64,000 bases of DNA from an uncultured Planctomycetota bacterium (GTDB lineage: Bacteria > Planctomycetota > Planctomycetia > Isosphaerales > Isosphaeraceae), in the NCBI GenBank assembly GCA_963737655.1, contig CAVTTN010000002.1:6688001-6752000 (forward strand), in the 5' to 3' direction. This document shows, in pieces, positions 39,104-64,000 of this stretch (the stretch's first letter is position 1; the number at the start of each line of letters is the position of its first letter). The notes under the pieces were generated by a model. It had not been told where the DNA came from, made no database searches, and was given only the letters and a program-made list of their open reading frames with translations. The translations under genes and the position numbers were made by a program.

Positions 39104-42100
39104 ATCGACCGCCTCCTCAACCGATTTCGAAGGACCACTCCCCACCGCCGGAGGGCCACGGACCTCGCCCTCCGCCCCGCCGGGCCTGATCGATTGGAGT
39201 TGGAGAGGCGACGGCTCCTGGCCATGTACGTCGTGACCACAACGATCGATTTTGGCGGTGTCGACCCCTCCGGCAAGGATTTCAGCCTCAGAGATGCCAT
39301 CAGTTTCGCGAACGAATCCGGGGAACCGAGCACAGTCCTCTTCAATTTCACCGGAGACACAACCAGGATCGACGGCCTCCCCACGATCACCGTCGATAAT
39401 CCCCTGCAGGCCATCACCGTCCCTATCGCGATCGACGGGACCAGCGGGTACGGCTCGGCAATCCATCCCGGGGTCCAGCTCCGTGGGGTCCCGGGCGACG
39501 GGACTGGAGATGGGCTGTTGTTCAGCGGAAGCGGAGCGACTGGTTCGGTCGTCCGAGGCCTCGCGATCGGTGGATTTCAGGACAACGGGATTAGCCTGTT
39601 CGACGTAAGCGGTGTCTCGATCCAGACCTGCTACGTCGGTACGAACGGAACAGGCGAAGCGGCGAATGGCAACGGGATCGATGGCATCGCGTTGCTGAGG
39701 ACCAGCAACATCACCATCGGCGGCTTCGCCACGGGCACCGCCAACGTGATGTCGGGCAACGCGGGCGACGGCATCGGCCCGGTGTCCTCATCCCAGACGG
39801 CCGTTGTGGGCAACCGCATCGGCACGAACGCGGCCGGGTCCGCAGCCCTGGTCAACGCGAGCAACGGGGTGGAGGTCGATGCCCCTTCCCAGGGAACGAC
39901 CATCGGCGGCACCGCGCCGGGCTCGGGCAACGTGATCTCGGCCAACGGGGGCAACGGCGTCCGCCTCGACGGCGGCGCCTCGCCCACCGCCCTGAACGCC
40001 GTGATCGCCGGCAACATCATCGGGCTGGACGCCACCGCCACGAAACGGCTGGGCAACGCCTATCAAAACATCTGCGCCTACGACGCGACCGGCAACACCA
40101 TCGGCGGCACGGTCGCCGGGGAGACCAACGTCATCGGCGCCAGCGGCCAGGTCGGCCTATGGATCGACACAGGATCGACGGGCAATCTCGTCGCCGGCAA
40201 CCTGATCGGGACCAACTCGGCCGGGGCGTCGGGGCTGGGCAAGTCGTACCAGGGGATCTACGACAACGCGCCGAACAACACGATCGGGGCCGTGGCCGGG
40301 CCGGCCCAGGTGATCGTCGGCAGCGGCAACAACGGCGTGGCGATCAGCGCGGCGGCCCCGGGGGCGCTGGTCCAGGGGAACCTGATTGGCATCGGCCCGG
40401 GCGGGTCGGCGATCCCGAACTCTCAGGACGGCGTGCTGGTCCTCGGCCCCGGGGCCACGATCGGGGGGACCTCGGCGGCGGCCCGCAACGTGATCTCGGG
40501 AAACGGCCAGGCGGGGGTCTCGATCTCGGGGTCGGCCGCCTCCCGGGAACCTGGTCGAGGGCGATTACATCGGCACGGATTTGACCGGGCCTCGGCCATC
40601 GCCAATCAAAACAACGGCGTGGCCATCACGGGCGGAGCGTCGTCGAACACCATCGGGGGCAGCTCGGCCGCCGGCGCCGGGGACCTGATCTCCGGCAATG
40701 CGCCCACCCTGTCCTCTGGTGACGGCGTGTACATCAGCGACGCCGGGACGACCGGCAATCTCGTCCTTGGCAACACGATCGGCCTGAACGTCTCCGGGGC
40801 CGTCCTTGGGAACGGATATGGAGGGGTGGATCTGAGGCCCGGAGCCTCGGCCAACACCATCGGCGGGACCTCGCCCTCAACTCGGAACATTCTTTCGGGC
40901 AACGTGATCGGCGTGTTGATCGTCGGCTCGGCTTCGAACCTGGTCGAGGGCAACTCCATCGGGACCGATCCGGCGGGGAACTCGGCCCGGCCGAATAGTT
41001 TCGGGGTCCTGGTCAGCAACGGGGCGACGTCCAATACGATCGGAGGGAATGCGGCCCTTGGCGCGGGGAACGTGATCTCGGGCAATAGCCTGGATGGCGT
41101 CGAGATCCGCAATTCGGGGGCGAACGGGAACGTCCTCGTGGGCGACCTCATCGGCTTGAATGCGATGGGCAACGCCCTGGGCAATGGCCGGACGGGAGTT
41201 CAGATCTACAACAATTCCGGCAACACCGTCGGCGGGAGTTCACCGGCGCTCCGCAACGTCATCTCGAGTAATTCGGCCGACGCCGTGGATGTCTTCGGCC
41301 TCGGGGCCTTTTCGAATGTCATCCTGGGCAATGATATCGGCACCGATCCCACGGGCACGACGGCGCGGGCCAACGGGGGGGTTGGAGTCGCTCTCTTCTC
41401 CTCGGCCCACGGCAACACGATCGGCGGGGCGTTGCCCGGCTCGGGCAATGTGATCTCGGGCAACTCGGGGGCTGGCGTCTCGGTCCTGGGCAGCCAGGCC
41501 GTGGGGGACTCGATCCTCGGCGACCTGATCTTCGCGAATGGGACGATCGGCATCGACCTGGGAGGCGATGGGGCCACTCCCAATCATCCCGGGGGCGCAG
41601 TGTCCGGGCCGAACTCGCTCCAGAACCATCCCGTCCTGACCTCCGCCTATAGCACCCCGATGACGACCATCCTCGGGGGCACCCTGGATAGCCTTCCGAA
41701 CTCGTCGTTCCGCGTGGAAATGTTCGCCGGGCCTCCGGGCGGTGGGTCCTCGGTGTTCCTCGGGTTCGCGACGGTGGCGACCGGCGGCTCGGGCCATGGG
41801 TCGTTCTCGTTCCAGACGGCCTTTCGGGTCGATCCGGGTTGGGTCGTGACGGCCACGGCGACCGACTCCTCGGGCGATACCTCCGAGTTCTCGGCCCCTG
41901 CGACCGTCTCGCAGACGACCGACGTGACGTCGTCGGTGACGGTCGTCCGAGGGGGGTTCGTGATCACCAACCGCAAGCTCGGGACGTTCAGCCAGGAGGT
42001 CACGATCCGGAACACCTCCGGCCATGCTCTCCTGGGGCCGATCTCGCCGGTCCTCGATGGCCTGGCCAACGCCTCGCTCGTCAATTCGACGGGCGTGACG

Positions 42101-42265
42101 GGCCCGGCCAATCCGCCGGCCGGAAGCCCTTATCTCGACCTGGTCCCTCCCCTCGGCTCGCTAGCCGACGGGGGCAGCGTGACGGTTTATCTCGTGTTCT
42201 CCGACCCGACCTTCCGGACGATTTCTTACACTGCCAAGGTCCTCGCCGGAGGAGGCCCCCGGTGA
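39104..42265 (+). CDS. Large extracellular beta-helix protein with LEPRxLL-type leader and conserved C-terminal ~115-aa domain
   Basis: LELERRRLLA; GN.IGT/NVISGN repeats; [17 protein letters not shown]. Start uncertain (GGAGGA precedes ATC 39104; ATG 39054 is out of frame). Compensating indels at ~40543-40590. Confidence 0.8.
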   Translation: MDRLLNRFRRTTPHRRRATDLALRPAGPDRLELERRRLLAMYVVTTTIDFGGVDPSGKDFSLRDAISFANESGEPSTVLFNFTGDTTRIDGLPTITVDNPLQAITVPIAIDGTSGYGSAIHPGVQLRGVPGDGTGDGLLFSGSGATGSVVRGLAIGGFQDNGISLFDVSGVSIQTCYVGTNGTGEAANGNGIDGIALLRTSNITIGGFATGTANVMSGNAGDGIGPVSSSQTAVVGNRIGTNAAGSAALVNASNGVEVDAPSQGTTIGGTAPGSGNVISANGGNGVRLDGGASPTALNAVIAGNIIGLDATATKRLGNAYQNICAYDATGNTIGGTVAGETNVIGASGQVGLWIDTGSTGNLVAGNLIGTNSAGASGLGKSYQGIYDNAPNNTIGAVAGPAQVIVGSGNNGVAISAAAPGALVQGNLIGIGPGGSAIPNSQDGVLVLGPGATIGGTSAAARNVISGNGQAGVSISGSAASREPGRGRLHRHGFDRASAIANQNNGVAITGGASSNTIGGSSAAGAGDLISGNAPTLSSGDGVYISDAGTTGNLVLGNTIGLNVSGAVLGNGYGGVDLRPGASANTIGGTSPSTRNILSGNVIGVLIVGSASNLVEGNSIGTDPAGNSARPNSFGVLVSNGATSNTIGGNAALGAGNVISGNSLDGVEIRNSGANGNVLVGDLIGLNAMGNALGNGRTGVQIYNNSGNTVGGSSPALRNVISSNSADAVDVFGLGAFSNVILGNDIGTDPTGTTARANGGVGVALFSSAHGNTIGGALPGSGNVISGNSGAGVSVLGSQAVGDSILGDLIFANGTIGIDLGGDGATPNHPGGAVSGPNSLQNHPVLTSAYSTPMTTILGGTLDSLPNSSFRVEMFAGPPGGGSSVFLGFATVATGGSGHGSFSFQTAFRVDPGWVVTATATDSSGDTSEFSAPATVSQTTDVTSSVTVVRGGFVITNRKLGTFSQEVTIRNTSGHALLGPISPVLDGLANASLVNSTGVTGPANPPAGSPYLDLVPPLGSLADGGSVTVYLVFSDPTFRTISYTAKVLAGGGPR

Positions 42266-42291
42266 CGAACCCTGGCGCGGGAACCCCGACC

Positions 42292-45767: not shown

Positions 45768-45780
45768 GAGACTGCCGGTG

Positions 45781-46407: not shown

Positions 46408-46435
46408 GGCCCCACGCCCCGGAGGCCGTCCCGCG

Positions 46436-49354
46436 ATGACCACCTGCCCCGCGACCGAGATCCTCGGCGCCCTGATCGGGGGCGACCTCCCGCCGGACCT
46501 GGCCTCGACGGTCCGGGCTCACGTGGAGGGCTGCCCCGAATGCCTGGGGACCCTGGACCGATTGACCGACGACCCGGAGCTGGCCTCGTGGATGGCCGAG
46601 GGGTCCGGCGAGCGCGCGACGCTCCCAGGGGCCGGCCCCGAGGCGGCCGCCCCGGCCCCCCTGCCCACGGCGATCGGCCCCTACGCGATCGAGGCCGAGG
46701 TCGGCCGCGGAGGGATGGGCGTGGTGTACCGGGCCCGGGACCCGGCGATGGGGCGGGTCGTCGCCCTGAAGGTGCTCCGGGCCGAGGGGATCGACCGGGC
46801 GGCCCGCGAGCGGTTCGTGAGAGAGGTCCGCGCCCTGGCCCGGGTCGAGCACGACCACGTCGTCCGGGTGTATACGACGAGCGGCCCGGACGAGCCGGTG
46901 GCCTACTTCGCGATGGAATACCTCGCCGGCCCGAGCCTGGCCGAGGAGGTCCGCGACCGGGGGCGGATCGACCCGAGGCGGGCGGCCCGGGTCGTGGCCG
47001 AGGTCGCCTCGGGGCTGGCGGCGGCCCACGCCTCGGGCCTGGTCCACCGCGATGTGAAGCCGGCCAACGTCCTGTTCGACGCCTCGGGCCGCGCCAAGGT
47101 CGGCGACTTCGGGCTGGCCCTCCTGGAGGGCGAGGCCTCGGGCCTGACCCGCGACGGGGTGATCGCCGGGACGCCCGCCTACCTGAGCCCCGAGCAGGCC
47201 CGGGGCGGGGCCGCCGACGCCCGGTCCGACGTCTACGCCCTTGGCGTGACCCTCTACGAGTGCCTGGCCGGCGAGAGCCCCTTCCGGGGGTCGCCGCACC
47301 GGGTCGTCCACCAAGTCCTCCACAACGAGCCCTTGCCCCCGCGGACGTTCCACGAGTCGATCCCGCGCAACCTGGAGACGATCGCGCTGAAGGCGATGGC
47401 CAAGGAGCCCGATCGCCGCTACCGGTCGGCCTCGGCCCTGGCCGACGATCTCGGTCGCTGGCTCGGCGGCGAGCCGATCGCGGCGCGGCCGGTCGGGACG
47501 ATCGAGCGGATCTGGCGGTCGGCCCGGAGGAGGCCGGCGGTCTCGGCCCTGGCCGCGGCCCTGGGGGCGGCGGTCGTGGCGGGGTTCGCCGGGGTCTCCT
47601 GGCAGTGGCGGAGGGCCGAGGCCAACGCCCGAGAGGCCAACGGCTATCTCCGCAAGACCCTCGAATCGGTGGACGCCTACTTCGTCAAGGTCAGCGAGAG
47701 CCGCCTCCTGGACGTCCCCAACCTCCAGCCCCTCCGCCGCGACCTCCTCGCCGCGGCCCGCGACTATTACGAGGCCCTCCTCCGCGACCGGCCGGGGGAC
47801 CCCGCCATCCGCCTCGACCTGGCCCGGGCCCGGGCCCAGCTCGCGGTGGTCGTCTCGACCGTCGGCACGGTCGATGAGGCGATCGGCCTGTTCCGGCAGG
47901 CGCTCTCGGAATTCGACCGGATCGTCGAGCGCTCCCCCGACGACCCGGCCGCGCGGTTCGCCCGGCTGTTCTGCCTGATCAACCTGGCGAAGGTGCAGAT
48001 CGGCAGCGCGCGATACGAGGACGCCCGAGCGACCTATCTCCGGGTCCTGGACGAGGCCGGGCCCCTGCGCCGCCTCCGGCCCGGGGCCGACGAGCCCCTC
48101 AAGGCGATCTACTCGGCCCGCCACGGCCTGGGCACGGTCGCCCTGTACCTCCGCGGCGACCTGGACGCCGCCATCGCCGAGTACGAGCGGGCGCTGGCGA
48201 TCAACCAGGAGCTGCTCGCACGCAAGCCGGACGACCGCGACTACCTGCGGAACGTCTCGAGGACGGCCGGGATGCTGGTGAACCCCTACGAGGGGAAGGG
48301 CCGGACCGCCGAGTCCCGCGCGGCGCTCGACCGGAGCTATGGGGCGACCCGGCGGCTGGTCGCCGAGCATCCCGAGGCCCAGGATTACCGGTTCGCCCTG
48401 GCGGCCCTGGAACGCTCCTACGCCCTGATCCCGTTCGCGCAGGCCACGGCGCTCCACGGCGCCGCGGCGATGGCGAAGATGGACGAGGCCCGGCAGCCCC
48501 TGGGCCGGGCCCTGGCCCTGGACCGCGACCTGGTGCGGGAGAACCCGCGGGTGGCCGTCTACCGCACCGACTTCCTCGGGTTGCTGTGGATCGCCGCCGC
48601 CCTGGAGTCGGCCTCGGGGCGGAACGACCGGGGCCTGGAGTTCCTGCGCGAGGCCCGCGAGGCCGCCTCCCCGGAGGTCGATCCGGACGCCCAGATGGGC
48701 TTCGATCGTCCGACCCAGGCGGCCATCCTGGGCACGACGGCGGTCGTCCTCGCCGAGGAGGGGCGAGCGGGCGAGGCCCGGCCGTTCCTGGACCAGGCCG
48801 ATCGCATCCTCGCCTCGCTCACGAAGGCGGAGCGGACGGCCTCCGCCCACATCGGGCCCCAGGCGATGATGGCCGCCTGCTACCGGGGGCAGATCCTCCT
48901 CGAAGCGGGGGACCCGGCCGAGAGCCTCCTGGCCTGGGACCGGGCATGCGAGCTGGCCCCCGCGCCCTGAGGCCCCTGATCGAATTCTTCCGGGAGATGT
49001 CCCGCGCCGAGGCCGCCCGAGGCCCCGACCCCGACCCGAAGCGGGCCCTGGCCGTGGCCCCCCTGGTCGATGCCATCTCCGCCGGGCAGCCGGTCCCCGG
49101 CGTCACGAACGTCTGGTACGCGAGGGTCCACGCCCTGGCCGCGTCCGTCGCCCCCGAGCCCCTCCGCCCGCGAGGCGCTCGACGCCCGGGCCGTCTTCCG
49201 CCTGGAGAAGGCGCGCGACGCCGGCCATTTCCGGGTCCCCGGCCGCACGGCCCGGGTCGATTCCGATCCCGCCTTCGCGCGGCTCCGCGACCGCGAGGAC
49301 TACCGAGGGTTCCGCAAGGCCCTCGGGGACCGGGCCGGCCGAGGCGATCGGTAG
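46436..49354 (+). CDS. Ser/Thr kinase with N-terminal HxxxCxxC (ZAS-like) motif, TM and TPR-like repeats; frameshifts near 48965 and 49165
   Basis: C..HVEGCPEC, GRGGMGVV, HRDVKPAN, DFGLA, GTPAYLSPEQ; tail DSDPAFARLRDREDY in another frame. Confidence 0.85.
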
Positions 49355-50334: not shown

Positions 50335-53300
50335 TCAACGGGCCCCCGCTCCGGCCAGGACTCGGGCGGAGTAGGTGATCGGGCTCACGAGGCCCGGGTC
50401 GTTGAACTCCAGGTAGATCGTCACGCTCTGGCCGGCGCCCGGCGCATTCCCGGCGCCCAGGGGCACGTTGAAGTACGGGCTGCCGGCCTGGCCCACCTGC
50501 TGGGTGGTCCCGCTGGCGTTCACGAGCGTGGCGTGGGTCAGGTCGTCGAGCACCAGAGAGACCGGGCCGGCGATCGCCGAGCCCGAGGTGTTCTTGATCG
50601 TCACGGCCTGGAGGAAGTGGCCGGTCTTCTTGTTGTAGGCGAATCCGCCCCGCGTGAAGGCGACCTCGGAGGTCACGTCCTGGGTGACGCCCAGTAGGAG
50701 GTCGTTCGCCTCGTAGGTGCTGGTCATCGTCTCGCCGTTGGAGAGCGTGGGGAGGATCTTGGTGGCGAAGTCGCCGACCCTCGAGCCGAAGGTCAGGGGC
50801 CGGAAGCCGTCGGAGGGCCCGGGGTTGTCATTGTTGATCGTGACGACCCGGAGCGTCCCGTCCAGGGTGGCGACCCCCATCACGGCCAGGCGGTCGTACT
50901 GCGTCCCGACCGAGGTCCCCGCCAGACGGATGAACAGCGTGCCGCCGGGGCCCTGGGCGTAGTTGCCGTTCACGGTGAGGATGCCCGTATTCGCGAGAGG
51001 GCTGGACGGGGCGACCGTCGCGGCGGTGTTCGCGACGTCGGAATGGACGGTCCCGGGGCCGTAGAGGCCGCCGCCGTTGAGGGCCACGCCGGAGGCCGTG
51101 AGGGTCCCTCCGCCGAGGATCGTCCCGGACGCGAGGCCCGATTGGGTGTACGCCCCCTGGACGGTCAGCGTGTCGGTCGCGCCGAGGCCCACGCCCCCGG
51201 CGTTGGAGAACGCCCCGGCCGTGGTGAAGTTCCGGCCGTTCTGGAGGAAGAACTGGGCGTTATTGGCGTTGGTGGCGAGGCCCGCCAGCGCGTTCCCGCC
51301 GTTCTGATCGACGATGCCCGAGCCGGGGCCGAAGAGGAAGATCGAGGCGGCGTTCGTCTGGATGTTCGCGCCGGGGAACTGGAGCGTCCCGTAGACGAGG
51401 TAGGTGCCGCCGGTCAGGGTCGTCCCGGAGAAGTTGGAGAAGGGGCCGGTGAGGTCGAGGGTTCCCGTGTCCACCTCGATCGTGCCGGTGTTGCTCAGGG
51501 AGTAGTTGATCGTGGAGGTGCCGGCGCCCGAGGACTTCTTGAGGGTGCCCTCGTTGGTGAAGGTCCCGCCGTAGTAGGAGCGGAGGTAGCCGTCCCCCTG
51601 GAAGTCGAAGGTGGCGCCGGCCTGGTTGTCGATCGCGGCGCCGCCGCTGTAGCCGTAGACCTGGCCGCCGGAGCCGACCAGCGCCACGGTCCCGGCGTTG
51701 GTCAGCGTCCCGGTGAGCAGCTCGTTGTTCGTCCCGTCGATGGTGAGGCCACTGCCGCTGGCGACGGTGACCGAGCCGTCGAGGTATCCGCCGTTCCAGC
51801 GGAACATCCCGGCGGGGAGGTCGAACGTCGCGCCGGCCGCGTCGGTCGCGAGGTGGCCGCTGCTGAGGTAGACGGTCCCGGCGCCCGAGCCGGTCTCGGT
51901 GCCGGCGTAGGTGTAGGTGTTGCCGCCGGTCAGGTCGTAGGCCGCGCCCGACGCGACGACGAACTTGACGCCGGTGGAGGTCCCGCCTCCGGTGGGGGCG
52001 AGCGTGCCGGTATCGACCTCGGCGGTGGCGGTGTTATTGAACGTGAAGCCGACGTTGGAGGTGCCGGCGCCCGAGGACTTCTTGAGGGTGCCCTCGTTGG
52101 TGAAGGTCCCGCCGTAGTAGGAGTGGAGGTAGCCGTCCCCCTGGAAGTCGAAGGTGGCGCCGGCCTGGTTGTCGATCGTGGCGCCGCCGCTGTAGCCGTA
52201 GACCTGGCCGCCGGAGCCGACCAGCGCCACGGTCCCGGCGTTGGTCAGCGTCCCGGTGAGCAGCTCGTTGTTCGTCCCGTCGATGGTGAGGCCACTGCCG
52301 CTGGCGACGGTGACCGAGCCGTCGAGGTATCCGCCGTTCCAGCGGAACATCCCGGCGGGGAGGTCGAACGTCGCGCCGGCCGCGTCAGTCGCGAGGTGGC
52401 CGCTGCTGAGGTAGTCGGTCCCGGCGCCCGAGCCGGTCTCGGTGCCGGCGTAGGTGTAGGTGTTGCCGCCGGTCAGGTCGTAGGCCGCGCCCGACGCGAC
52501 GACGAACTTGACGCCGGTGGAGGTCCCGCCTCCGGTGGGGGCGAGCGTGCCGGTATCGACCTCGGCGGTGGCGGTGTTATTGAACGTGAAGCCGACGTTG
52601 GAGGTGCCGGTTCCCGAGGACTTCTTGAGGGTGCCCTCGTTGGTGAAGGTCCCGCCGTAGTAGGAGTGGAGGTAGCCGTCCCCCTGGAGGTCGAAGGTGG
52701 CGCCGGCCTGGTTGTCGATCGTCGCGGTCGAGCTGTAGCCGTAGAGCTGGCCGCCGGAGCCGACCAGGGCGATCGTCCCGGCGTTGGTGAGCGTGCCTTG
52801 GAGGTAGTCGTTGTTCGTGCCGTCGATCGTGAGCGACCCGGCATTCGTGACCGAGCCGGCGAGGTAGCCGCCGGACCACTGGAACATCCCGGCCGGCAGG
52901 TTGAACGTCGCCCCGGCGTCGCCGGTGGTCAGGGTTCCGCTGCGGAGGATCACCGTCCCGCCGCCCGAGCCGGTCTCGGTCCCGGCGTAAGTGTAGGTGG
53001 TATTGCCCGTCAGGTCGTAGGCCGCGCCCGGGGCCACGATAAACTGGGCGTTGGTGGATGTCCCACTCCCGGTCGGGTCCAGCGTGCCGGTATCGACCTC
53101 GGCGGTCGCGGTGTTGTCGAGCGCGAAGCTGATCGTGGAGGTTCCGGTTCCCGAGGACTTCTTGAGGGTGCCCTCGTTGGAGAAGGTCCCGCCGTAGTAA
53201 TAGCGGAGGTAGCCGTCCCCCTGGAGGTCGAAGGTGGCGCCGGCCTGGTTGTCGATCGTCGCGGTCGAGCTGTAGCCGTAGAGCTGGCCGCCGGAGCCGA

Positions 53301-54390
53301 CCAGGGCCGCGGTCCCGGCGTTGGTGAGGGTGCCGACGAGGAACTCGTTCCCCGTGCCGTCGATCGTCAGCGACCCGGCGTTCGTGACCGAGCCGTAGAG
53401 GTTGCCGCCGCTCCACTGGAAGAGGCCCGACGGGAGATTGAAGGTCGTCGACCCGTTGGCGGGGGTGATCAGGGTCCCGCTGCGGAGCAGGACGGCCCCC
53501 GCGCCCGAGCCGGTCTGCGTGCCGGAGAACGTGTTGGTGGCGTTGCCGGTCAGGTCGTAGATCGCGTCCTTGGCGACCACGAAATGCACGCCGGTGGTCG
53601 TCCCGCCGCCGCCGGGATAGAGCGTGCCGGTATCGACCTCGGCCGTGCCGGTGTCGTTCAGGGTGAAGCCGACGTTGGAGGTGCCGGCGCCCGAGGACTT
53701 CTTCAGCGTACCCTCGTTGGTGAAGGTCCCGCCGTAGTAGTGGTTCAGGTAGCCGTCCCCCTGGAAGTCGAAGGTGGCGCCGGCCTGGTTGTCGATCGTG
53801 GCGCCGCCGCTGAAGCCGTAGACCTGGCCGCCGGAGCCGACCAGGGCCACGGAGTTCGTATTCGTGAGGGTGCCGAAGAGGTACTCGTTCGCCGTGCCGT
53901 CGATGGTCATCGACCCGGCATTCGTGACCGAGCCGTACAGGTTGCCGCCGCTCCAGGAGGACGTGCCGCCGAACGACACCGGGGCGGCGGCGTTGACGGC
54001 CCCGCCGCTGAGGTTCAGGCCGCCGGGCACGGTCGAGGCCGCGTCGATCTGGAGGCCACCGTTGGAGATGGCGATCGTCGTGTTGGCGTTGTCCGTGAGG
54101 TTCTGGATCTCGTTGCTGCTGCCGTTGGTAATTGTCACCGAGCCGGGGCTGGTCAGCTCGATCTCGGCGTTGTTGCTCGCGGAGGGGACGACGCCCTCGA
54201 CCCAATTCGAGGCGGTGTCGAAGTCGCCGCCGGAGGGATGGAGGGCGGCGTTCCAGTGGATGGTCGTGACGGACATCACGACCCGGCCTTCCAGCGATTC
54301 GAGATCGGGCCGGCGTCCTAGTCGGGGGCGGCGCGACGGAAGGGCGAGGGGGCGGCCCGGCAGGGCGCGCCCGAGGAAGCGACGGATCAT
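50335..54390 (-). CDS. Large extracellular repeat protein (1351 aa) with LEPRxLL-type leader, ~180-aa repeats and conserved C-terminal ~115-aa domain
   Basis: PDLESLEGRVVMS; EGTLKKSSG five times; autotransporter-passenger-like Gly/Thr/Asn composition, no beta-barrel. Confidence 0.9.
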   Translation of the reverse strand: MIRRFLGRALPGRPLALPSRRPRLGRRPDLESLEGRVVMSVTTIHWNAALHPSGGDFDTASNWVEGVVPSASNNAEIELTSPGSVTITNGSSNEIQNLTDNANTTIAISNGGLQIDAASTVPGGLNLSGGAVNAAAPVSFGGTSSWSGGNLYGSVTNAGSMTIDGTANEYLFGTLTNTNSVALVGSGGQVYGFSGGATIDNQAGATFDFQGDGYLNHYYGGTFTNEGTLKKSSGAGTSNVGFTLNDTGTAEVDTGTLYPGGGGTTTGVHFVVAKDAIYDLTGNATNTFSGTQTGSGAGAVLLRSGTLITPANGSTTFNLPSGLFQWSGGNLYGSVTNAGSLTIDGTGNEFLVGTLTNAGTAALVGSGGQLYGYSSTATIDNQAGATFDLQGDGYLRYYYGGTFSNEGTLKKSSGTGTSTISFALDNTATAEVDTGTLDPTGSGTSTNAQFIVAPGAAYDLTGNTTYTYAGTETGSGGGTVILRSGTLTTGDAGATFNLPAGMFQWSGGYLAGSVTNAGSLTIDGTNNDYLQGTLTNAGTIALVGSGGQLYGYSSTATIDNQAGATFDLQGDGYLHSYYGGTFTNEGTLKKSSGTGTSNVGFTFNNTATAEVDTGTLAPTGGGTSTGVKFVVASGAAYDLTGGNTYTYAGTETGSGAGTDYLSSGHLATDAAGATFDLPAGMFRWNGGYLDGSVTVASGSGLTIDGTNNELLTGTLTNAGTVALVGSGGQVYGYSGGATIDNQAGATFDFQGDGYLHSYYGGTFTNEGTLKKSSGAGTSNVGFTFNNTATAEVDTGTLAPTGGGTSTGVKFVVASGAAYDLTGGNTYTYAGTETGSGAGTVYLSSGHLATDAAGATFDLPAGMFRWNGGYLDGSVTVASGSGLTIDGTNNELLTGTLTNAGTVALVGSGGQVYGYSGGAAIDNQAGATFDFQGDGYLRSYYGGTFTNEGTLKKSSGAGTSTINYSLSNTGTIEVDTGTLDLTGPFSNFSGTTLTGGTYLVYGTLQFPGANIQTNAASIFLFGPGSGIVDQNGGNALAGLATNANNAQFFLQNGRNFTTAGAFSNAGGVGLGATDTLTVQGAYTQSGLASGTILGGGTLTASGVALNGGGLYGPGTVHSDVANTAATVAPSSPLANTGILTVNGNYAQGPGGTLFIRLAGTSVGTQYDRLAVMGVATLDGTLRVVTINNDNPGPSDGFRPLTFGSRVGDFATKILPTLSNGETMTSTYEANDLLLGVTQDVTSEVAFTRGGFAYNKKTGHFLQAVTIKNTSGSAIAGPVSLVLDDLTHATLVNASGTTQQVGQAGSPYFNVPLGAGNAPGAGQSVTIYLEFNDPGLVSPITYSARVLAGAGAR
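51480..53960 (-). repeat. Intragenic tandem repeats of 537-543 bp (~4.5 units)
   Basis: Anchor sequence at 51541, 52084, 52627, 53164, 53704; two units are nearly identical in DNA. Confidence 0.9.
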
Positions 54391-54596: not shown

Positions 54597-54620
54597 TATC
54601 CACCGAGGGCGCGGATCTGA
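54597..54620 (-). promoter_or_regulatory. Putative ECF-3 target promoter TCAG-N15-GGATA
   Basis: Minus strand gcctcag-atccgcgccctcggt-ggatatag, ~200 bp upstream of ATG 54390. Confidence 0.6.
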
Positions 54621-55097: not shown

Positions 55098-56628
55098 CGA
55101 AAAAAACTAGGGTGGCAAAGTTTCCTTGATCAAGGCATCTTCAAGTTCCCGGAGATACACGGCCGGGTCGCGGCGGAACCGCCGGCCCTGTGCCCGCACC
55201 TCCTGGCGCCGCTCCAATCTGGCGAGAAGCTTTCGCCAGGCCTCCAGGTCCGACGGCATCAGGTCCTCGCCTCGAACTTCCCCCCGCAGCCGCGTCGCCA
55301 CCGCCGCCGGAAGCCGCACCGACCCGCGCACCACAAGCCCAGGCGACGCGACCTTCCGGCCGCTGCACCGCCGCTCGTGATACCGGTGCGAGCCGAACGA
55401 CTGCTCCAGGTCGTTGTCCGTCCGCGGCAGGTCCGCCACGTCGTAGCAGTGGAACAACCCCGGCCAATCGCTCCGCGTCACCTTCCGGAAGTGCCCCGGC
55501 GCCCCGCTCAGATCCCCGGCATGCCCGGCGTTCCGTGCCATCGCGCCCAGCGAGCCCCTGCAGCGCGCCCTCACCGCCGCACCGGTAAGCCCGGCCACGT
55601 TCGCCGGGATCGCCGCGGCCCGGAACACCCAGTCGTAGGCCGCCTCCACCGGCGCCCGCAAGGCCGCCGTCGCCTCCAGGCCACCGGAGAGCAACGACCG
55701 TAACCGTCTCAGGTCGGGCGGGATCCCCCTTTTTCCTCGACCCGGTCGAGGCTCTCCACCACCGCTTTGAGCCGCCCCTTGAGCACCAGCCCCGGGGCCG
55801 ACAGCGGCGGCCGGCCGTCGTCGGTCAACGCGCTGCGGACCGCGGCGCAATACCCCCGGATCGCTTTCGCCTCCGAGTCGTCACGGCCCTCGGCCTTCCG
55901 CTCGATCGGCCGCACCCCGCGGACCTGCTTCTTCAACTCCTTCTTGGCGTGCCGGTCGGCCTCGTAGATCGGCCTGGCCGCCTCGCGGAGGTAATGGAAG
56001 AGGACCTCGCCACCGAGGCAGTCGCGGATCACCCAGAGGACCTCGTGGCCGACGTCGGGCCGGAGGCCGTCGATGGCCAGGATCACCCTCCCGGCGGCCG
56101 CCGTCACCCGGCGCAGGCGTTCGGTGTCGGCGAGCGACAGGGCGAGCCGCTCGTCGTAGCGGTCGAGCAGGTTGGTGACGGTGCGGAGGCAGAGGGGCAC
56201 GCCGCGCCGGGTCAGCTCGGCATGGATCTCGGGGGCGCTGCGGTGCTGGGCGTGCCGCAAGGTCCCGATCAGGGCGACGACGTCGAGGCCGAACTCGTGC
56301 TCCGGCAGGGCGTAACGGCCCTCCTGCTCGGGGCGGAGCGGGACGGCGCGTCGGGGGCATCGGGGGCCGCGACAGCGGCGGACCTGGAGCCGGAGCCGGA
56401 CCGTGCCGCTCAGGGTTGTGACGGACCGCTGGGTCATGTAGGCGGCCCAGAGCGGCGCGCTGCAGGCGGGGCAGGCCCGCGTCAGTGCGGGAAGCTCGAT
56501 GGTCTGATCGGGTTGAGGGCGGGCACTCCGTCGGGCCATGGCAGCACTCCTTGAAGTCGAATTGGCCCAAGGAGTAACAAATACGGGGATCGCCCATCAA
56601 GGAAACTTTGCCACCCTAGTTTTTCTCG
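55098..56628 (-). mobile_element. Insertion sequence (family uncertain) with 33-bp terminal inverted repeats
   Basis: 55098-55130 vs reverse complement of 56596-56628 differ at one base; no clear target duplication. Confidence 0.9.
55107..56539 (-). pseudogene. Transposase in two frames, probably internally deleted
   Basis: CPAC..C..C zinc ribbon, LAIDGL, FHYLRE, LPRTDNDLEQSFG; frame junction at GAAAAAGGGGG (~55730); stop codon lies inside the IR. Confidence 0.75.
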
Positions 56629-57300: not shown

Positions 57301-60300
57301 TCAACCCCAACTGCTCGGGTTGAAGACGCTGCTCGATCCGAAGGCGTTGGTCACGAATGCGGAGTAGATCGTGTTCGCCTTGGAACTGAAGAAGGTCTGA
57401 ATGTCGCCGGCGACGTACCCCGCGCCGTGGAGGACGGCGTACAGGTCCGCCGGATCGACGAGGTTGAAGACGTCCTGGACGGCCGAGCTGACGGAGGTGA
57501 GGTCGTAGCTCAGGCTCTTGAGGATCTGGACGACCTGGCGGGCACTCTGGTTGTAGGCGGACTGGAGGGCGCCCGCCGCCTGGTCCAGGGTGTAGCCGGC
57601 GGACGTCAGGACCCCGACGACGTCCGAGGCCGCCAGGGAGAGGTCGGACTTGAGGGCGGCGGCGACGTCCCCGGCGAGGTATCCGGCCGTCCTGAGCGCC
57701 GAGGCGACCTGCACTTTCGCAACGAGGTACTCGTCCGTGAGGACGCCGGCGATCGTCGAGAGCGTCTGGCCGGCGTCTTGCAGGTCCGCGGCCACCAGGG
57801 CCTCGGTCTGATGGTACAGTTCATCCAGGACGCGACCGATGTCGGAGGCCCCGGCCAGGATGCCCGACTTGATGTCCGAGGTCCATTGCCCGAGGTTGTT
57901 CGTGTAGAAGCTCGAGAAGAGCGAGGTGGCATCGGCCGAGATGGCATCGACGGCCTGCCCGGCCAGCGCGGCGAAGGTGCCCGGGCTGGCGCTCAGGGGC
58001 AGGGTGAGGAGGGAGGGCACGCTCAGCCTGGTGCCCTCGAACGTGAATCCGCCGCCGAGGCCCAGGCTGAAGGAACCCGTGCCGTTGCCGGAGCCGGCGG
58101 ACACGGTGATCGTGCCGCTGAAGCCGGCCTGGAGGTGGATCGACCCCAGGTCCACTTCGACCGGCAGGAAATTCTTGCTGCCGGGGATGTCGATCGGCCC
58201 GACCTCGGCGTCGATCCCGAAGGCGATCGAGGACGTGCCGCCGAAGGCCCAGGACGGCGAGGACGTGTCGAGGCCCACGAGGTTGACATACAGGCCGACC
58301 CCGAGGCTGACCCCGGGGACGAAGACCTGCCCGGCGATGTTGAACCGCTCGGTGGACGGGCCCCAGGCCAGGGTCGTGACGATCGACGTTCCCAGGTCCA
58401 TCCCGAAGAGCGACCCGGAGGCCGTCAGCGACAGCCCCGAGGTGTTGAAGGAGAAGGCGCCGGTGAGATCGACCAGGGAGGAGGACGACGACACCTGGCC
58501 GAGGGTCAGCTCGGCGGACCCGCTCACGGTCGCGGTGCTGGTGGCGACGGACACGGTGCCGTCGAGCCGCCCCAGGCCGACCGGGAGTGCGGCGTCGAGG
58601 CCCATCCGATAGTTGCCGGCGCCCCAGTCGAGCGCGACGTCGAACGCGATGGAGCCGAGATTCCCGGTGCCCAATGTCCCCGTGGCGGAGAGGTCCAGGC
58701 CCTTCGAGTTGACGGACACGGCCCCGCCCGCCGTGATGAGCTTGGAACTCCCCGCCTTCGCGGTGAAGCTCGCCGTGCCGCTGATCCCCGCGCCGGCGTA
58801 GGCCAGGCTGCCGCTGAGATCCAGCTGGGCCGCGGCGCCGGTGCCGAGATTGTAGTCGAAGGCGACGGAGTCCGCGACCGTCGATCCCCAGTTCACGTCC
58901 AGGAAGCCCTGGCCGAGCGTGCCGCCGGCCACCGAGACATTCCCGGTCACGCTCATCAGGGAGCCGTTGATCAGGAGGGTGCCGTTGGCGTCGATCAACG
59001 GGACCGACACGCCCGGGATCCGGCCGAACTGGAAGTCTTCGGAGCCGCCGATGGAGTAGCCCGTCCTGGGGTCGTCCCTCAGGGTGAGGTTGCCGGAGAG
59101 CTCCGCCTGCCCCCCGAACCCCAAAAGATCGATCGTCATCGACGAGATGGCCGCGCTGCTCCAGCTCAGGTCCATCGAGGCGGTCCCGGTGCCGAGGAGT
59201 CCGCCGACCATGCTGGCGGTGCCGACGATGTCCAGCTCGGTCGAGGAGATGGTCACGGTCCCCACCTCGGTGAACAGCGCGTAGGTGCTGCCCTCGTACA
59301 GGACGCTCTCGCCGAAGGTCAGGCCGACGCTGGCGGAGACCACGACCGTCGAGGTACCGGGGTTCAGGATCGCCCCGGACAGCGAGGTGATGTAGAAGCC
59401 GGAGGCGCCGACGGGGATGCCCGGCGACTGCTCGTAGCCCAGCTCGATCTCCTGGAGGACGCCGTTGGAGAAGTCGAGCTCGCCGTTGACGACCAGGCCG
59501 GGTTCCAGCTGGACGCTGCCGCCCGCGTCAATCGTGATCGTCCCGGCGACGTCCCGGTACAGGACGCTCAGGGTCGTGAAATCGACGGCCCCGGGGGAGA
59601 CGGTCACGCTCAGATCCAGCCCATCGACCTGGACCGCGCCGGTCTTCGTGTTGATGGTCAGGCCCGAGTCGGGCAGCGTCACGGTGCCGGAGATCACCGA
59701 GCCCAGGCTGAGCGTGGCCCCACCGGTGACCTGGAGGTAGGAATGGGCCGGGTCGTAGGACACCCCCAACTCGTTGAACGCCAGGGACGTCGGCCCCAGG
59801 GTGATCCCCCCGCTGTGGAGGGTCAGGTTCAGGGTCTGGAGCGACCAGTCCTGGAGGACCAGCCCCGGACTGTTCGGGTCGTCGCCGAAGTCCGCCGCCA
59901 CATGATTGACAATCCCCCCGAGCGTGCTGACGGTCGCCGTCCCGAACAGCGAGAAGTGGGAATGGGGGTCGGTCGCCGTCGCGGCGAGGTAGCTCACGCC
60001 CAGGTCGGTGTCGTCGAGCGTGAGGCCGAAGCGCTGGATTTCCTGGGTGGACTTCACGATCCCGTCGAATTTGGTGAGGTCTCCGCCGGAGATCACGATC
60101 CCGGCGGTCTGATGGAGGACGGTGTCGATGGTGTCCTGGCCGCCGAGATCGACCGCGATTTCAACGCTGTGATCCTTGCTGCTCACGCTGGCGTTGCCCG
60201 CGACGCTGAAGAAGCCGCCGTTAGCCGGCGAGTACTGGAAATCGAGGTTCACGATCTGGATCGACCCCGCGCCGCCCGCCAGTTTGATGTTGGCGGACAC

Positions 60301-63300
60301 GCTGGCATCGAAATGCGTGAGCTGCCCGTTCCTGACCACGATCCCCGGGGTGGGGACGCCGTCCGCCGTGAGGCCGCCGAAGTCGATGTCGAGGTAGACC
60401 CCCGCGCTCCGGATCGGGAGGAAGGCGTTGCCGGTGATGGCGAAGGTGTCGTTACTCGCGGTGTAGACGAGTTGGAGTTGCTCGAAATTGAAAGTCATCC
60501 CGGCCACGGTGAAGCCGGCGATCACGGAGGCATCGAAGTGGTCGAGCTGGCCCGCGACGACCTCGAAGTCGAGGTCGGCATGGAACCCCTGGAGGCCCGG
60601 GATATTCAGGCCACTGTGCCCGGTCACTTCGTAGCTCCCGCCGTTGTCCGTCGCGTAGGCGAGGTTCAGGTTCGGATTGCTGACCGTGACCCCGGCGAGC
60701 ACGACGCTGGCGCCGCAGCCCACGCTGAAGGGCTGGACCACGCCGTTCTGGATCTCCAGGCTGGAACCCGCGATGTCGCTGCCCGAGCCGAGCTGGGCGG
60801 TGATCGTGAGGGTGGCGATCGACGGGGTGGTGAAGGTCGTCGAGCCGGCGATGGCGAAGGTCCCGCCCGCGGCCGTCGTGTAGGCCAGGGTCAAGCCCGA
60901 GGCGGCCACGGACATGCCTCCCAGGACGAAGGGGCCGGAGACCGACGCCCCCAGGGCCGAGAACGAGCCGCCCGAGATCATTAGTCCGGCCGTGGCCACG
61001 TTATTGACCTTGCCGCCCAGGACGACCGGCAGGGACGGGTCGGAGGAGACCGCCGGGTCGGTCAGGGTCGCGGCGCCGGTCACAGTGAAGGTCCCGGCGT
61101 TCGCGGGCGAGAACGCCACCGCCAGGCCCGCCGTGGAGAAGGTGTAGCCGCCCAGGCTCGGGGCGCCCACCGACGCGGTGGCCGTGGCCCCGAACGGCTG
61201 GGGCACGCCGTTCATGAGCTGGAGGCCCGCGCCTGCCGTCCCGAGCGTCAGGGGCAGGTCGGGGAGGCCGGCGAAGCTCGGGAACTTGATGTCGGTCTTC
61301 CCGGAAAGGGTGTAGGTGCCGTTGTTGGCCGGGGCGTAGACGATCTCCAGGGCCGAGGCGTCGAACGACGCACCGTCCAGGGTGAAGGAGCCCGTCATCG
61401 CCGAGTCCAGGGTCACCGTACTGCCCGAGATCACCAGCCCGGCCGTCGGCTGGCCCGCCCCCGGGACCGTCCCGCCCAGGACGGCCGTCAGCGACGGCCC
61501 GCCGGTCAGCGAGGGGTCCGTTACCGTGGTCGTGCCCTTGATGGTGAAGGCCCCCAGGGCCGGATTCGAATCGGTCACGGTCAGGGCCGAGGCGTCGAAC
61601 GCGAGGCCGCCCAGGCTGATCGAGCCGGAGAGGGTCCCTCCGACCTGGGTCAGCACCCCGTTCTGGATGGAGAGCCCGTTCCCGACCGAGGTCGGCAGAG
61701 GGATCGCGAGCGTGAGCGGCCCGGCCGTCAGCAGGGCGTCCCCGCTGATCGTGAACGTCCCGGAGTTCGCGGTCGAATAGCCCAGCGTCAGGCTGGTCCT
61801 GGCGGCGAGGCTCCCCCCGGGTACGGTCAGGCCGGTCAGGGTGCCGGCGACCGTGCCGAGCGACCCGTTGGTGATCACCACGCCGGCGTTGGCGGAGTTC
61901 GTGCCGAACTGGACGGTCGCGCCGGTGAGGTTGGCGACCCCGGAGATCACCGCGGCGCCGAAGATCCGGTAGCTGGCCTGGCCCGTCCCGCCCGGCGGCG
62001 GGGTGACGACGGCCCGGAGGTTCGTCGACGTGAACGTCACGTTCCCGAGGGTGAACGAGGTGAGGGTCGAGTTCGCGCCGAAGACCATCCTCACCCCGCC
62101 CGAGGTGACCACGGTCCCGATGGGGGGCACGGTGGTCGCGGCCGGGGCGTTGGGGTCGGAGAAGACCCGGGGCGAATAGGAGATCGCCCCGTTGGTCGGG
62201 TTGCTGGAGGTCAGGCCGATCTGGAAGGACCCGCCGGCGGCGAGCGAGGCGATCGACCCGGGGATCGCCAGGAGGGGGACGCCGCTCGGCGCCGTCTGGA
62301 CGGTCAGGGCCGTGGTCGTCCCGGCGTTCAGGAGGGTGGCCGACTGGAGGACGGCCGTCGAGGGCAGCCCCGCCAGCAGGACGCGGAACGGGCCCGAGAG
62401 CGGGCCGCTCGTCGTGTTGGTCAGGGTCAGGGTGCCGGTCGTCAGCCGGGTGATCGGATTGCCGTGGAACGGGCCCTGGGCGGCCGAGAGGCCGGTCGTG
62501 AGGTCGGCCGCCACGTCGATCGCGATGGCGCCGGGCGCAGTCGGGACGGTCGCCTTCAGGTATCCCAGCGTCACGACCGGATAGGCCATGCCCGGATGGG
62601 CCAGGCCCGAGGAGGTCTGGAAGACATGGTTGCCGGAGACCGTCACCATCCCGTTCGTCACGGCGATCGTCACCGGCGAGTTGGTGCCGCCCGAGGAGTC
62701 GAATTTGCCGTCGCCCCAGGAGACGGTCGCGCTATAGGCGGCGGGGTCCGTCGAGGCGCCGACGGCGCGGAAGGTCGCCAGGGCCTGGGTCCCGGTGGAT
62801 TGGCCCTGCATGGCCGAGAACGCGCCCGTGAGGCTCACGGTGATCCCGGGGGTCACGTCGAACGCCCCGGTCTTCGCGGCCGTCAGGCTGCCGGCGGAGG
62901 CGGCCAGCGTGTACGACCCGGCGGTCGCCAGGACCAGGTTGGGGAAGGTCGCGACCCCGTTCACGGCGTTGAGCGTGGTCGCGGCGCCCGCCTGTCCGCC
63001 AGAGGGGGTGGCCGTCAGCGCCACGGAGGCCGAGCTGGTGGTCACCAGGTTGCCATACAAGTCCTCCACGTCCACCACGACGGCCGGGTTCAGGGCCTGT
63101 CCCGTCGCGGCGGTCCCCGGGGTCGCGCCGAACACCAGTTTGTTCGCCGTGGTCGGCGCCACCAGGAGGCTGGTCGAGGGAGAATTGGCGAGCCCGGTCG
63201 AGGTCGCCGTGATCCCGTAGTTCCCCGCCGTGTTGAGGATGAGGCCCGAGAACTTGGCGTCGCCACTAGAGGTCATGGCCGTGGGCGTGCCGCCGACGAA

Positions 63301-64000
63301 ATTGCCGGGGCCGTTGAGCGTCAGGCTCACACTGGTCGAACTGGTGGTCAGCTGGTTGCCGAACTGGTCCTCCACAAGCACGTGGATGAGGGGGCTCAGG
63401 GAAATGCCGGCGGTCGCCGTCGCCGGGGCGGTGACGATCGCGAGCTGGCTCGCCCCGGCGGGCGCCTCCTTGAACGAGGACGAGGCCGGCGAGGTCAGAG
63501 AGGCGGTCGAGGCCGTCAGGGTGTAGCTGCCGGCGGTGTCGAGGACGAGGTTCGGGAACGTCACCACGCCCAGGACGGGGGCCGCGACCAGGACGCTCTC
63601 GGGCGTGAACGAGTGGGTCCCGTTGACCGCCAGGGACACCACGTCCGTGCTGGTGGTCACCACGTTGTTGTAGGCGTCCCACAGCGTGACCAGGACCGAG
63701 GAGGAGAGCGGCTGGCCGGCCGTCGTCGTCTTCGTCGGGACCTGCGTGATCCCGAGGGAGGCGACCGTCCCCGGCGAGACGACGACCGACAGGGGCGTCG
63801 CGGTCGTGATGCTGCCGGACCTGGCCGTCGGGGTATAGGTCCCCGCGGTTTGCAGGACCAGGCTGGAGAACGTCGCCACGCCGTTCACCGCATTGACCGT
63901 CGACGTGCCGGCGAGGACGCCGGGGCCGTTGACCGTGAGGGCGACCGACCCCGAGGCGGAGGTGATCAGGTTGCCGTAGGAGTCCTCCAGGCCGACCTGG
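57301..64000 (-). CDS. Giant extracellular protein (>2200 aa, 5' end outside the window)
   Basis: Ig-like repeats (NGVATF..L.L.TAG.YTL), PKD-like WGDG, internal copy of the ~115-aa domain, long beta-rich region, C-terminal helical repeats. Confidence 0.9.
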   Translation of the reverse strand, partial: QVGLEDSYGNLITSASGSVALTVNGPGVLAGTSTVNAVNGVATFSSLVLQTAGTYTPTARSGSITTATPLSVVVSPGTVASLGITQVPTKTTTAGQPLSSSVLVTLWDAYNNVVTTSTDVVSLAVNGTHSFTPESVLVAAPVLGVVTFPNLVLDTAGSYTLTASTASLTSPASSSFKEAPAGASQLAIVTAPATATAGISLSPLIHVLVEDQFGNQLTTSSTSVSLTLNGPGNFVGGTPTAMTSSGDAKFSGLILNTAGNYGITATSTGLANSPSTSLLVAPTTANKLVFGATPGTAATGQALNPAVVVDVEDLYGNLVTTSSASVALTATPSGGQAGAATTLNAVNGVATFPNLVLATAGSYTLAASAGSLTAAKTGAFDVTPGITVSLTGAFSAMQGQSTGTQALATFRAVGASTDPAAYSATVSWGDGKFDSSGGTNSPVTIAVTNGMVTVSGNHVFQTSSGLAHPGMAYPVVTLGYLKATVPTAPGAIAIDVAADLTTGLSAAQGPFHGNPITRLTTGTLTLTNTTSGPLSGPFRVLLAGLPSTAVLQSATLLNAGTTTALTVQTAPSGVPLLAIPGSIASLAAGGSFQIGLTSSNPTNGAISYSPRVFSDPNAPAATTVPPIGTVVTSGGVRMVFGANSTLTSFTLGNVTFTSTNLRAVVTPPPGGTGQASYRIFGAAVISGVANLTGATVQFGTNSANAGVVITNGSLGTVAGTLTGLTVPGGSLAARTSLTLGYSTANSGTFTISGDALLTAGPLTLAIPLPTSVGNGLSIQNGVLTQVGGTLSGSISLGGLAFDASALTVTDSNPALGAFTIKGTTTVTDPSLTGGPSLTAVLGGTVPGAGQPTAGLVISGSTVTLDSAMTGSFTLDGASFDASALEIVYAPANNGTYTLSGKTDIKFPSFAGLPDLPLTLGTAGAGLQLMNGVPQPFGATATASVGAPSLGGYTFSTAGLAVAFSPANAGTFTVTGAATLTDPAVSSDPSLPVVLGGKVNNVATAGLMISGGSFSALGASVSGPFVLGGMSVAASGLTLAYTTAAGGTFAIAGSTTFTTPSIATLTITAQLGSGSDIAGSSLEIQNGVVQPFSVGCGASVVLAGVTVSNPNLNLAYATDNGGSYEVTGHSGLNIPGLQGFHADLDFEVVAGQLDHFDASVIAGFTVAGMTFNFEQLQLVYTASNDTFAITGNAFLPIRSAGVYLDIDFGGLTADGVPTPGIVVRNGQLTHFDASVSANIKLAGGAGSIQIVNLDFQYSPANGGFFSVAGNASVSSKDHSVEIAVDLGGQDTIDTVLHQTAGIVISGGDLTKFDGIVKSTQEIQRFGLTLDDTDLGVSYLAATATDPHSHFSLFGTATVSTLGGIVNHVAADFGDDPNSPGLVLQDWSLQTLNLTLHSGGITLGPTSLAFNELGVSYDPAHSYLQVTGGATLSLGSVISGTVTLPDSGLTINTKTGAVQVDGLDLSVTVSPGAVDFTTLSVLYRDVAGTITIDAGGSVQLEPGLVVNGELDFSNGVLQEIELGYEQSPGIPVGASGFYITSLSGAILNPGTSTVVVSASVGLTFGESVLYEGSTYALFTEVGTVTISSTELDIVGTASMVGGLLGTGTASMDLSWSSAAISSMTIDLLGFGGQAELSGNLTLRDDPRTGYSIGGSEDFQFGRIPGVSVPLIDANGTLLINGSLMSVTGNVSVAGGTLGQGFLDVNWGSTVADSVAFDYNLGTGAAAQLDLSGSLAYAGAGISGTASFTAKAGSSKLITAGGAVSVNSKGLDLSATGTLGTGNLGSIAFDVALDWGAGNYRMGLDAALPVGLGRLDGTVSVATSTATVSGSAELTLGQVSSSSSLVDLTGAFSFNTSGLSLTASGSLFGMDLGTSIVTTLAWGPSTERFNIAGQVFVPGVSLGVGLYVNLVGLDTSSPSWAFGGTSSIAFGIDAEVGPIDIPGSKNFLPVEVDLGSIHLQAGFSGTITVSAGSGNGTGSFSLGLGGGFTFEGTRLSVPSLLTLPLSASPGTFAALAGQAVDAISADATSLFSSFYTNNLGQWTSDIKSGILAGASDIGRVLDELYHQTEALVAADLQDAGQTLSTIAGVLTDEYLVAKVQVASALRTAGYLAGDVAAALKSDLSLAASDVVGVLTSAGYTLDQAAGALQSAYNQSARQVVQILKSLSYDLTSVSSAVQDVFNLVDPADLYAVLHGAGYVAGDIQTFFSSKANTIYSAFVTNAFGSSSVFNPSSWG

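Follow-up and report, generated by a model that had tools for sequence, protein, structure and literature searches.

Three large exoproteins encoded in the window (the whole stretch of 64,000 nucleotides analysed here) carry a common domain, hereafter D, and the gene of each is followed by a gene for a signal-peptide protein, hereafter the partner. The question raised by this locus is whether D attaches these exoproteins, or cargoes, to the partner, as an earlier note on this DNA had proposed by analogy with cohesin-dockerin.

The coordinates previously assigned to the three D copies and the three partners all hold. Cargo A, a large exoprotein, has repeats resembling a parallel β-helix and a weak NosD match. 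Its open frame runs from 38369 to 42265 on the + strand; position 39104 is an ATC codon, so that the true start is uncertain and lies probably near 39100. D is the C-terminus of cargo A (41918..42262, +; hairpin from 41948). Partner P1 (42292..43071, +) starts 26 nt past the stop of A and contains a signal peptide, an NF038129 domain and a PEP-CTERM from position 42886. Cargo B (50335..54390, -) is a Gly/Thr-rich repeat exoprotein of 1351 aa, also ending with D (50338..50682, -), here modelled as a β-sandwich whose long hairpin corresponds to residues 7-31. P2 (49505..50194, -) starts 140 nt past the stop of B and is organized like P1, with a PEP-CTERM that starts at 49591. Cargo C (57301..64000, -) lies in an open frame of 3358 aa, of which only the 3' part is inside the window. 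Its D (62152..62508, -) is internal, 1616 aa ahead of the stop, and displays a divergent hairpin. P3 (56736..57212, -) starts 88 nt past the stop of C and has a signal peptide and an NF038129 domain. Its homology ends at 56790, where it is truncated (NF038129 profile covered from 3 to 136 of 194), and the PEP-CTERM is absent. Just beyond the truncated P3 lies an IS-like element (55098..56628) with a weak IS66-transposase match and 33-bp terminal inverted repeats identical at 32/33 positions. The lost end of P3 could not be located in the stretch from 54390 to 55110, and P3 is probably a pseudogene. C-P3 is the weakest of the three pairs, since 5 kb separate this D from P3, the hairpin of D departs from the usual form and P3 itself is broken.

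The description of one domain common to A, B and C is thus correct (D identity of 55% between A and B, 35% between A and C), as is that of a partner directly downstream on the same strand, ending in PEP-CTERM when intact. The two other exoproteins, at 25178 and 34676, contain no D and have no NF038129 gene nearby, in agreement with what had been reported.

The three partners are indeed homologous (50% identity between P1 and P2, 33% between P1 and P3), and their family proved to be already named. P1, P2 and P3 match the NCBIfam family NF038129 with 72, 74.1 and 82.7 bits, all above the curated cutoff of 65, and the family is also matched by 51 of the 56 partner domains in the alignment. P1 also matches TIGR02595, and P2 matches PF07589 above cutoff. 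Both proteins possess a signal peptide (those of the partners were read by eye), the PEP motif, a transmembrane helix and a basic cluster, the tail being composed of VPEP, a hydrophobic stretch and basic residues. PEP-CTERM is the substrate signal of exosortase. The genome of the window encodes an exosortase (PF09721, G000:C2:7440551-7441309, E 1e-63), and PF09721 was present in 5/5 other genomes checked. In the available portions of the literature, a structural role of PEP-CTERM proteins in floc formation is described and the final location of the processed proteins is only proposed. What is known is therefore NF038129 as a named PEP-CTERM family, for which the literature search returned no mention. 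What appears new is its pairing with D: as the earlier note had supposed, no description of it was found in the titles and first lines of abstracts surveyed, subscription journals and supplements being outside the search.

The linkage that the earlier note had suggested looking for in other genomes is strong in three phyla. In the window's own family, 39 of 46 non-self partners have an adjacent D, as do 22/22 partners in a family of Pseudomonadota (that of genome G761) and 5/5 in Armatimonadota. In the reverse direction, 30 of 31 D copies in the same Pseudomonadota family have an adjacent partner. This falls to 42 among the 110 D matches of the window's own family, about 60% of which have none, and to 5 of 26 in Armatimonadota, which indicates that D exists and persists without a partner. 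Partner-like matches in permuted order near locus L207 were left out of these counts. As a control, the 54 D-less exoprotein ORFs of the LExR-xLL type in the whole genome were inspected: none is followed by an NF038129 partner and one by another PEP-CTERM gene. Among the 56 PEP-CTERM-like ORFs of this genome, only the three intact partners follow a D gene. According to the available part of PMC1569441, most PEP-CTERM genes are single-gene operons, in contrast to the NF038129 partners, which stand beside a D-marked cargo gene.

The cargoes are unrelated to each other (endonuclease/exonuclease/phosphatase, GH39, GH98C-CBM35, FG-GAP, cadherin-like and Ig repeats), and signal peptides were observed on all six complete cargoes read. 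In nearly all pairs, D occupies the end of the cargo that points towards the partner. At two loci (L092, L093) and on plasmid CP157006 the gene order is reversed, D is N-terminal and adjacency is kept; the pairing therefore does not amount to a single frozen cassette. One polypeptide contains both D and the partner domain in the genome of the window (5348 aa) and in G306 (3863 aa). Several pairs may be found in one genome (five in G018, seven in G911), and G008 has eight unlinked D cargoes, all fitting the hairpin pattern (8/8), and one lone partner. Distribution is patchy: NF038129 was found in 0/250 further genomes of a Planctomycetota-wide sample (E 1e-10, at most 12 candidates scored in each) and in 1/101 genomes of the family of G591. 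The Atlas suggests that the family is common in Acidobacteriota.

The D copies were then compared according to the presence of a partner. Gly13 of the D hairpin is conserved in 59/61 paired copies, in 14/22 orphan copies from partner-bearing genomes and in 4/23 orphan copies from genomes scored as partner-less, which are often incomplete. The core residues L48, G67, Y70, G39 and P40 do not differ between paired and orphan D. Orphan D in partner-less genomes has kept its core and lost one β-hairpin. On a tree built from the core only, the Gly13 label needs 12 changes, of which at least eight are forced. Outside the training alignment, Asn/Asp17 is present in 11/12 paired and 3/20 orphan copies, a contrast confounded by phylum because the pairs are mostly from Pseudomonadota and the orphans from Armatimonadota. 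The canonical hairpin is absent in the D of cargo C and in that of the fusion from the window's genome. At the level of sequence, conservation of the hairpin where a partner exists supports a role as binding surface, for which this pattern would be expected.

From these data we infer direct binding between D and the partner. We somewhat favour the reading that D is a portable docking tag, bound by the adjoining NF038129 PEP-CTERM protein, which holds an anchorless cargo at the envelope. Cargo and partner would be co-expressed and both exported to the periplasm, where exosortase would process the tail of the partner, the latter staying envelope-bound. The β-sandwich of the partner would bind D at its first long hairpin (G-[LF]-x-[YF]-N-R-x-T), and the bound cargo would be displayed on the surface. 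A lone partner may act for several unlinked cargoes, and the D copies of partner-less genomes may have drifted to another use.

The gene linkage and the hairpin data apply equally if the partner, in binding D, served as a shuttle for export or as a chaperone for folding, the cargo then crossing the outer membrane and being released, with D as secretion signal. D ends at most seven residues from the C-terminus in 50/51 homologues, as do type IX CTDs, and the accessible part of PMC12618676 reports that the type B class of these CTDs requires a downstream-encoded shuttle. However, D is found N-terminally and inside cargoes as well, the partner appears to be a small and soluble, tail-anchored sandwich and no membrane barrel, and orphan D cargoes are maintained in partner-less genomes; we judge this alternative unlikely. 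The same type IX system nevertheless appears to be a closer working analogue of the docking pair than cohesin-dockerin. As far as the consulted sections of PMC9143113 and PMC12618676 describe it, the type B CTD is a terminal domain on diverse cargoes with the PorP/SprF partner gene directly downstream, orphan cargoes are served in trans, and surface anchorage via the partner is proposed. The differences lie in the domains and their distribution. D has no homology to the type IX CTD (TIGR04131, 0/56 sequences at E 0.05) and is N-terminal or internal in some cargoes; PorP/SprF is an outer-membrane β-barrel, whereas the NF038129 partner is predicted as a small β-sandwich followed by a PEP-CTERM tail; and type IX belongs to Bacteroidota, whereas the D-partner pairs were found outside this phylum.

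D (105-115 residues) fits no Pfam or NCBIfam family. Its model is all-β (pLDDT 92), and its highest-scoring structural neighbour is the CBM2 module of endoglucanase D (3ndy_E; Z 8.7, rmsd 2.8, 96 aligned). Other CBM2 chains match at Z 6.9-7.3, these scores being moderate, and the Atlas gives CBM2 look-alikes at 0.84. Weak sequence matches to CBM2 and CBM3 were also obtained, with CBM_2 (PF00553) in 7/56 members, the best at E 0.0018, under the family thresholds. The partner domain (151 residues, followed by the tail anchor) was modelled as a 10-strand sandwich-type fold. Its best match is weak (jelly roll 1ajo_B; Z 7.9, rmsd 3.5, 126 aligned), ConA-type lectins match at E about 0.01, Foldseek gave no match at E 0.001 and the partner profile found 0 matches among PDB sequences. 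The model thus hints at a jelly-roll-like sandwich, with no clear match. Both folds resemble carbohydrate-binding modules, which counts against docking.

Such folds are what would be expected if D bound glycans as a divergent CBM2-like module and the partner served as a surface lectin, the two being co-expressed without contact and sharing an exopolysaccharide or other substrate. CBM2 binding faces carry conserved surface tryptophans. In contrast, 45/56 D sequences have no Trp at all and no alignment column has it in more than 3/56, so that D folds, according to its model, like a CBM2-like β-sandwich without conserved tryptophans. D is further distinguished from CBM2/CBM3, with which it has the fold class in common, by its long hairpin, whose conservation goes with the presence of a partner. 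A common ligand would not need a partner gene for each cargo, as in the genomes with five and seven pairs, and would leave the hairpin loss in partner-less genomes unexplained. We regard this alternative as improbable, slightly more so than the shuttle.

Under the docking reading, the comparison with the cellulosome remains an analogy only. In the cellulosome, a small tag on varied enzymes is captured by a cell-anchored β-sandwich, and the likeness consists of a small tag on varied cargoes and an anchored β-sandwich that would capture them. However, the dockerin is calcium-binding and helical, with a duplicated loop-helix, D being an all-β sandwich with no dockerin match (0/56 members). Cohesin is not among the best 50 fold matches listed for D, although absence from such a list does not exclude a relation. 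No convincing cohesin match was obtained for the partner either: the profile search gave none for P1-P3, and cohesin-like chains reached only E about 0.03, with TM-scores of 0.14-0.23 and rmsd >14. The cellulosome moreover has a multi-module scaffold, whereas D and partner are mostly one gene to one gene.

The earlier note had also pointed to the parallel similarities of D and partner. This covariation holds up (rho 0.44 in a Mantel test in which no permutation exceeded 0.22; the nearest neighbour agrees in 18/56 pairs), but mirror-tree similarity was rejected as evidence of binding since adjacent genes are inherited together, which alone gives this result. Inter-chain mutual information (MI-APC, 56 pairs) reached a top z of 6.0, below the shuffle 95th percentile of 6.7, in an underpowered analysis. 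A hitch-hiking DNA cassette, in which D and the partner gene recombine onto exoprotein genes while being functionally uncoupled, would predict this covariation and the position of D at the partner-facing cargo end, but it is very improbable given the two opposite gene orders, the maintenance of pairs down to about 20% identity over three phyla, A-P1 and B-P2 junctions whose shared DNA was limited to 35 nt where the mature partner domain begins, and a hairpin conservation that follows the partner.

PEP-CTERM proteins are abundant in environmental Gram-negatives, mostly without an assigned molecular function, and NF038129 now has a specific candidate partner, an unnamed domain carried by nucleases, glycosidases and giant adhesin-like proteins. 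D and the partner domain are both small and fold well. If the binding is true, it would explain how cargoes without their own anchor are retained on cells, and the pair would parallel type IX type B CTD-PorP/SprF by convergence. Surface display could then make use of D and its partner as a small, orthogonal pair of tag and adaptor. More tentatively, and with the balance somewhat against it, D-NF038129 may represent an undescribed piggyback sorting route of diderms, in which the cognate adaptor recognises a 105-residue tag, brings large folded enzymes and adhesins to the surface and retains them. In that case D would be a portable display tag functional at either protein end, and the PEP-CTERM family would gain a defined molecular job.

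By translation and alignment, the domain (D, 115-120 residues) was found in the three copies where the earlier note had placed them, C-terminal in the large exoproteins A and B and internal in C. The homologous signal-peptide protein said to follow each of these cargo genes is also present, on the same strand and 26, 140 and 88 nt past the stops of A, B and C, respectively. All three partners (P1, P2 and P3) score above the NCBIfam cutoff for NF038129 ("NF038129 family PEP-CTERM protein"), and the partner belongs to this family and to the PEP-CTERM class. The homology of P3 ends at 56790, its tail being absent, and the gene adjoins an IS-like element (55098-56628; 33-bp terminal inverted repeats; weak IS66-transposase match, E 1.8e-4) that occurs only once in the genome; nothing else in the genome matches the 160 nt between the break and this element. 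The D copies of the window matched no Pfam or NCBIfam family, and 56 aligned homologues gave weak family matches only. The predicted structure of D is a β-sandwich (pLDDT 92, 56 sequences) where strands 1-2 (residues 7-17 and 22-31) constitute a long hairpin. The window also encodes two exoproteins devoid of D, one with a Vgb-lyase-like propeller (25178-26806) and one with β-helix, Big_9, DUF11 and Big_3 domains (28287-34676), and, scattered between the exoprotein genes, a Ser/Thr kinase with TPR repeats (46436-48970) and a TPR protein (23034-24761).

The whole genome (G000) contains seven copies of D, five partner domains and one exosortase. A fourth pair lies at C2:6146013/6145112 on contig C2; its cargo gene (L019, G000:C2:6146013-6150161, minus strand) is broken across several frames, by frameshifts or sequencing errors. 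Two tandem exoprotein genes (C2:3809488 and 3810666; L017:4489-6005, G000:C2:3809488-3812945, minus strand) carry a C-terminal D without partner, with Lys/Arg-rich loops in place of the hairpin; such basic orphan copies also occur in other planctomycetes and in Armatimonadota. A 5348-aa SBBP/DUF7948/PKD/FG-GAP protein (L018:1997-18040, G000:C2:783996-800039, minus strand) combines a divergent D with an NF038129 domain ~800 residues away and has no PEP-CTERM; a similar arrangement was seen in genome G306 (L043, L076) and, in frameshifted form, in G342 (L074). Among the D-less exoprotein ORFs of the type that we take to be LExR-xLL, picked by regular expression and composition filter, this partner comes next in 0/54 and another PEP-CTERM gene in 1/54. 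From the 56 PEP-CTERM-like ORFs of the genome, only the three intact partners are preceded by a D gene.

In 120 further genomes of the same taxonomic family, the partner search gave 54 rows corresponding to 51 loci, 46 of them outside G000. A same-strand D ends ≤600 nt upstream in 39 of these 46, and for two others it is situated 2.6-2.8 kb upstream within a giant gene (in frame in G306, apparently frameshifted in G342). D is missing for five partners: two lie ~200 nt or less from where the contig starts, another has the weak remnant of a broken D, and two, in G008 and G307, are lone. Both parts were found in 28 genomes, the partner only in three, D only in 22 and neither in 67, these kin not being independent. 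In the reverse direction, 41 of the 110 D matches are partner-linked according to the search tables. Of the other 69, all examined, three have a divergent partner, one fell below threshold and 17 are located inside giant proteins; a further 23 are orphans, mostly terminal, from genomes that do bear a partner, and the last 25 come from genomes that yielded no partner, including when a broader partner profile was run. A divergent internal class of D without partner (L181-L190, L206-L219, L222), found in giant proteins (open frames up to 11,156 aa) and on a Kovacikia plasmid, is probably a separate subfamily.

The linkage between D and its partner, for which the earlier note had proposed an adjacency check, is shown to be specific, independent of gene order and recurrent across three phyla. 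In a Pseudomonadota family centred on genome G761 (121 genomes), D adjoins 22/22 partner matches, being C-terminal in the upstream gene for 21 and downstream in the same frame for one, and 30/31 D matches have a partner; four loci come from the unpublished genome G963, without which the values are 21/21 and 27/28. Two of these partners, from the genus Massilia, carry the source label NF038129 protein. In Armatimonadota (101 genomes), a D gene precedes 5/5 partners; the 26 D matches consist of five paired copies, one copy in a gene lying in tandem upstream of a pair, and 20 orphans spread over 13 genomes without partner match. The 16 metagenome loci show D upstream in 12 (10 being close relatives of the query), reversed order in one and a D fragment downstream in one, two being uninformative. 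The system is patchy in distribution: it occurs in 2/401 Pseudomonadota genomes, in 1/101 in the family of G591, and in 0/250 genomes in a shallow search of other Planctomycetota.

The cargoes are diverse and sorting signals are present. Among 21 scanned sequences, we detected endonuclease/exonuclease/phosphatase enzymes, GH39, GH98C-CBM35, FG-GAP, and cadherin-like and Ig repeats; six complete cargoes have signal-peptide-like N-termini (read by eye), and D lies ≤7 residues from the C-terminus in 50/51 database homologues. The order is reversed in L092, L093 and the Methylomonas plasmid CP157006, which also bears a lone partner (L220): the partner comes first and D directly follows the cargo signal peptide. 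In L092:1333-3420 (G761), a single open frame of 1164 aa spans partner, PEP-CTERM helix and D-bearing cargo, through either natural fusion or loss of a stop; it would offer a natural construct to fold both domains together. The partner of L090:1210-2100 (G407) has as tail, instead of PEP-CTERM, a duplicated Asp-rich motif, presumably dockerin-like; this tail has no Pfam match at 1e-5 and suggests a possible anchor swap. In the G761 family, a response regulator that we take to be PhoB-like is repeatedly found downstream of the pair (L094, L136, L144, L147); this would be consistent with a surface nuclease that scavenges phosphate.

At the level of the alignments, the conservation of the D hairpin is shown to depend on partner presence. 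Gly13 is conserved in 59/61 paired copies, in 14/22 orphans of partner-bearing genomes and in 4/23 orphans of partner-less genomes (counting only rows that cover the column), and Asn/Asp17 in 50/61, 17/23 and 9/25, respectively; the core positions L48, G67, Y/F70, G39 and P40 display no paired-versus-orphan difference. On a poorly resolved hairpin-free tree of 104 terminal copies (from which 17 internal copies, L205, L218 and any row without Gly13 coverage were omitted), the Gly13 label requires 12 changes, at least eight being forced and two falling on paired tips. In sequences outside the profile, paired and orphan copies have Asn/Asp17 in 11/12 and 3/20, and Gly13 in 8/12 and 5/20 with an unchanged core, both comparisons being confounded by phylum. 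Two results count against the hairpin as candidate interface: the hairpin is non-canonical in the D of cargo C, and inter-chain mutual information between D and partner gave no signal above shuffles.

We consider it fairly probable that the partner binds D at the hairpin and, processed by exosortase and envelope-bound, would thereby retain the cargo. The earlier note had likened the pair to cohesin-dockerin; it is not one. The partner could also be a shuttle or chaperone, which seems rather unlikely to us. In the available text of PMC9143113 and PMC12618676, the type IX type B CTD has a cognate shuttle, PorP/SprF, encoded by the downstream gene, and orphans share one; the D-partner pair appears similar in working, with no component in common. 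That D and partner bind a common glycan without contacting each other is quite improbable. The closest fold match of D is a CBM2 (3ndy_E, Z 8.7, rmsd 2.8, 96 aligned), but Trp is not conserved in D, and the partner model (L035; ten-strand β-protein, pLDDT 90, 21 sequences) has weak jelly-roll matches only (1ajo_B, Z 7.9, rmsd 3.5). A neutral cassette is very improbable.

PEP-CTERM and exosortase were defined in PMC1569441 and bioRxiv 10.1101/2023.06.07.544157, whose available text mentions no such pairing. The pairing of D with NF038129 was not found in the open literature searched; subscription papers, supplements or the NCBIfam curator comment could already note the neighbourhood. With the retention of cargo by an envelope-bound partner as the probable role, D and its partner constitute a real, conserved two-part module with putative binding, apparently undescribed so far, of the tag-plus-anchored-partner kind.
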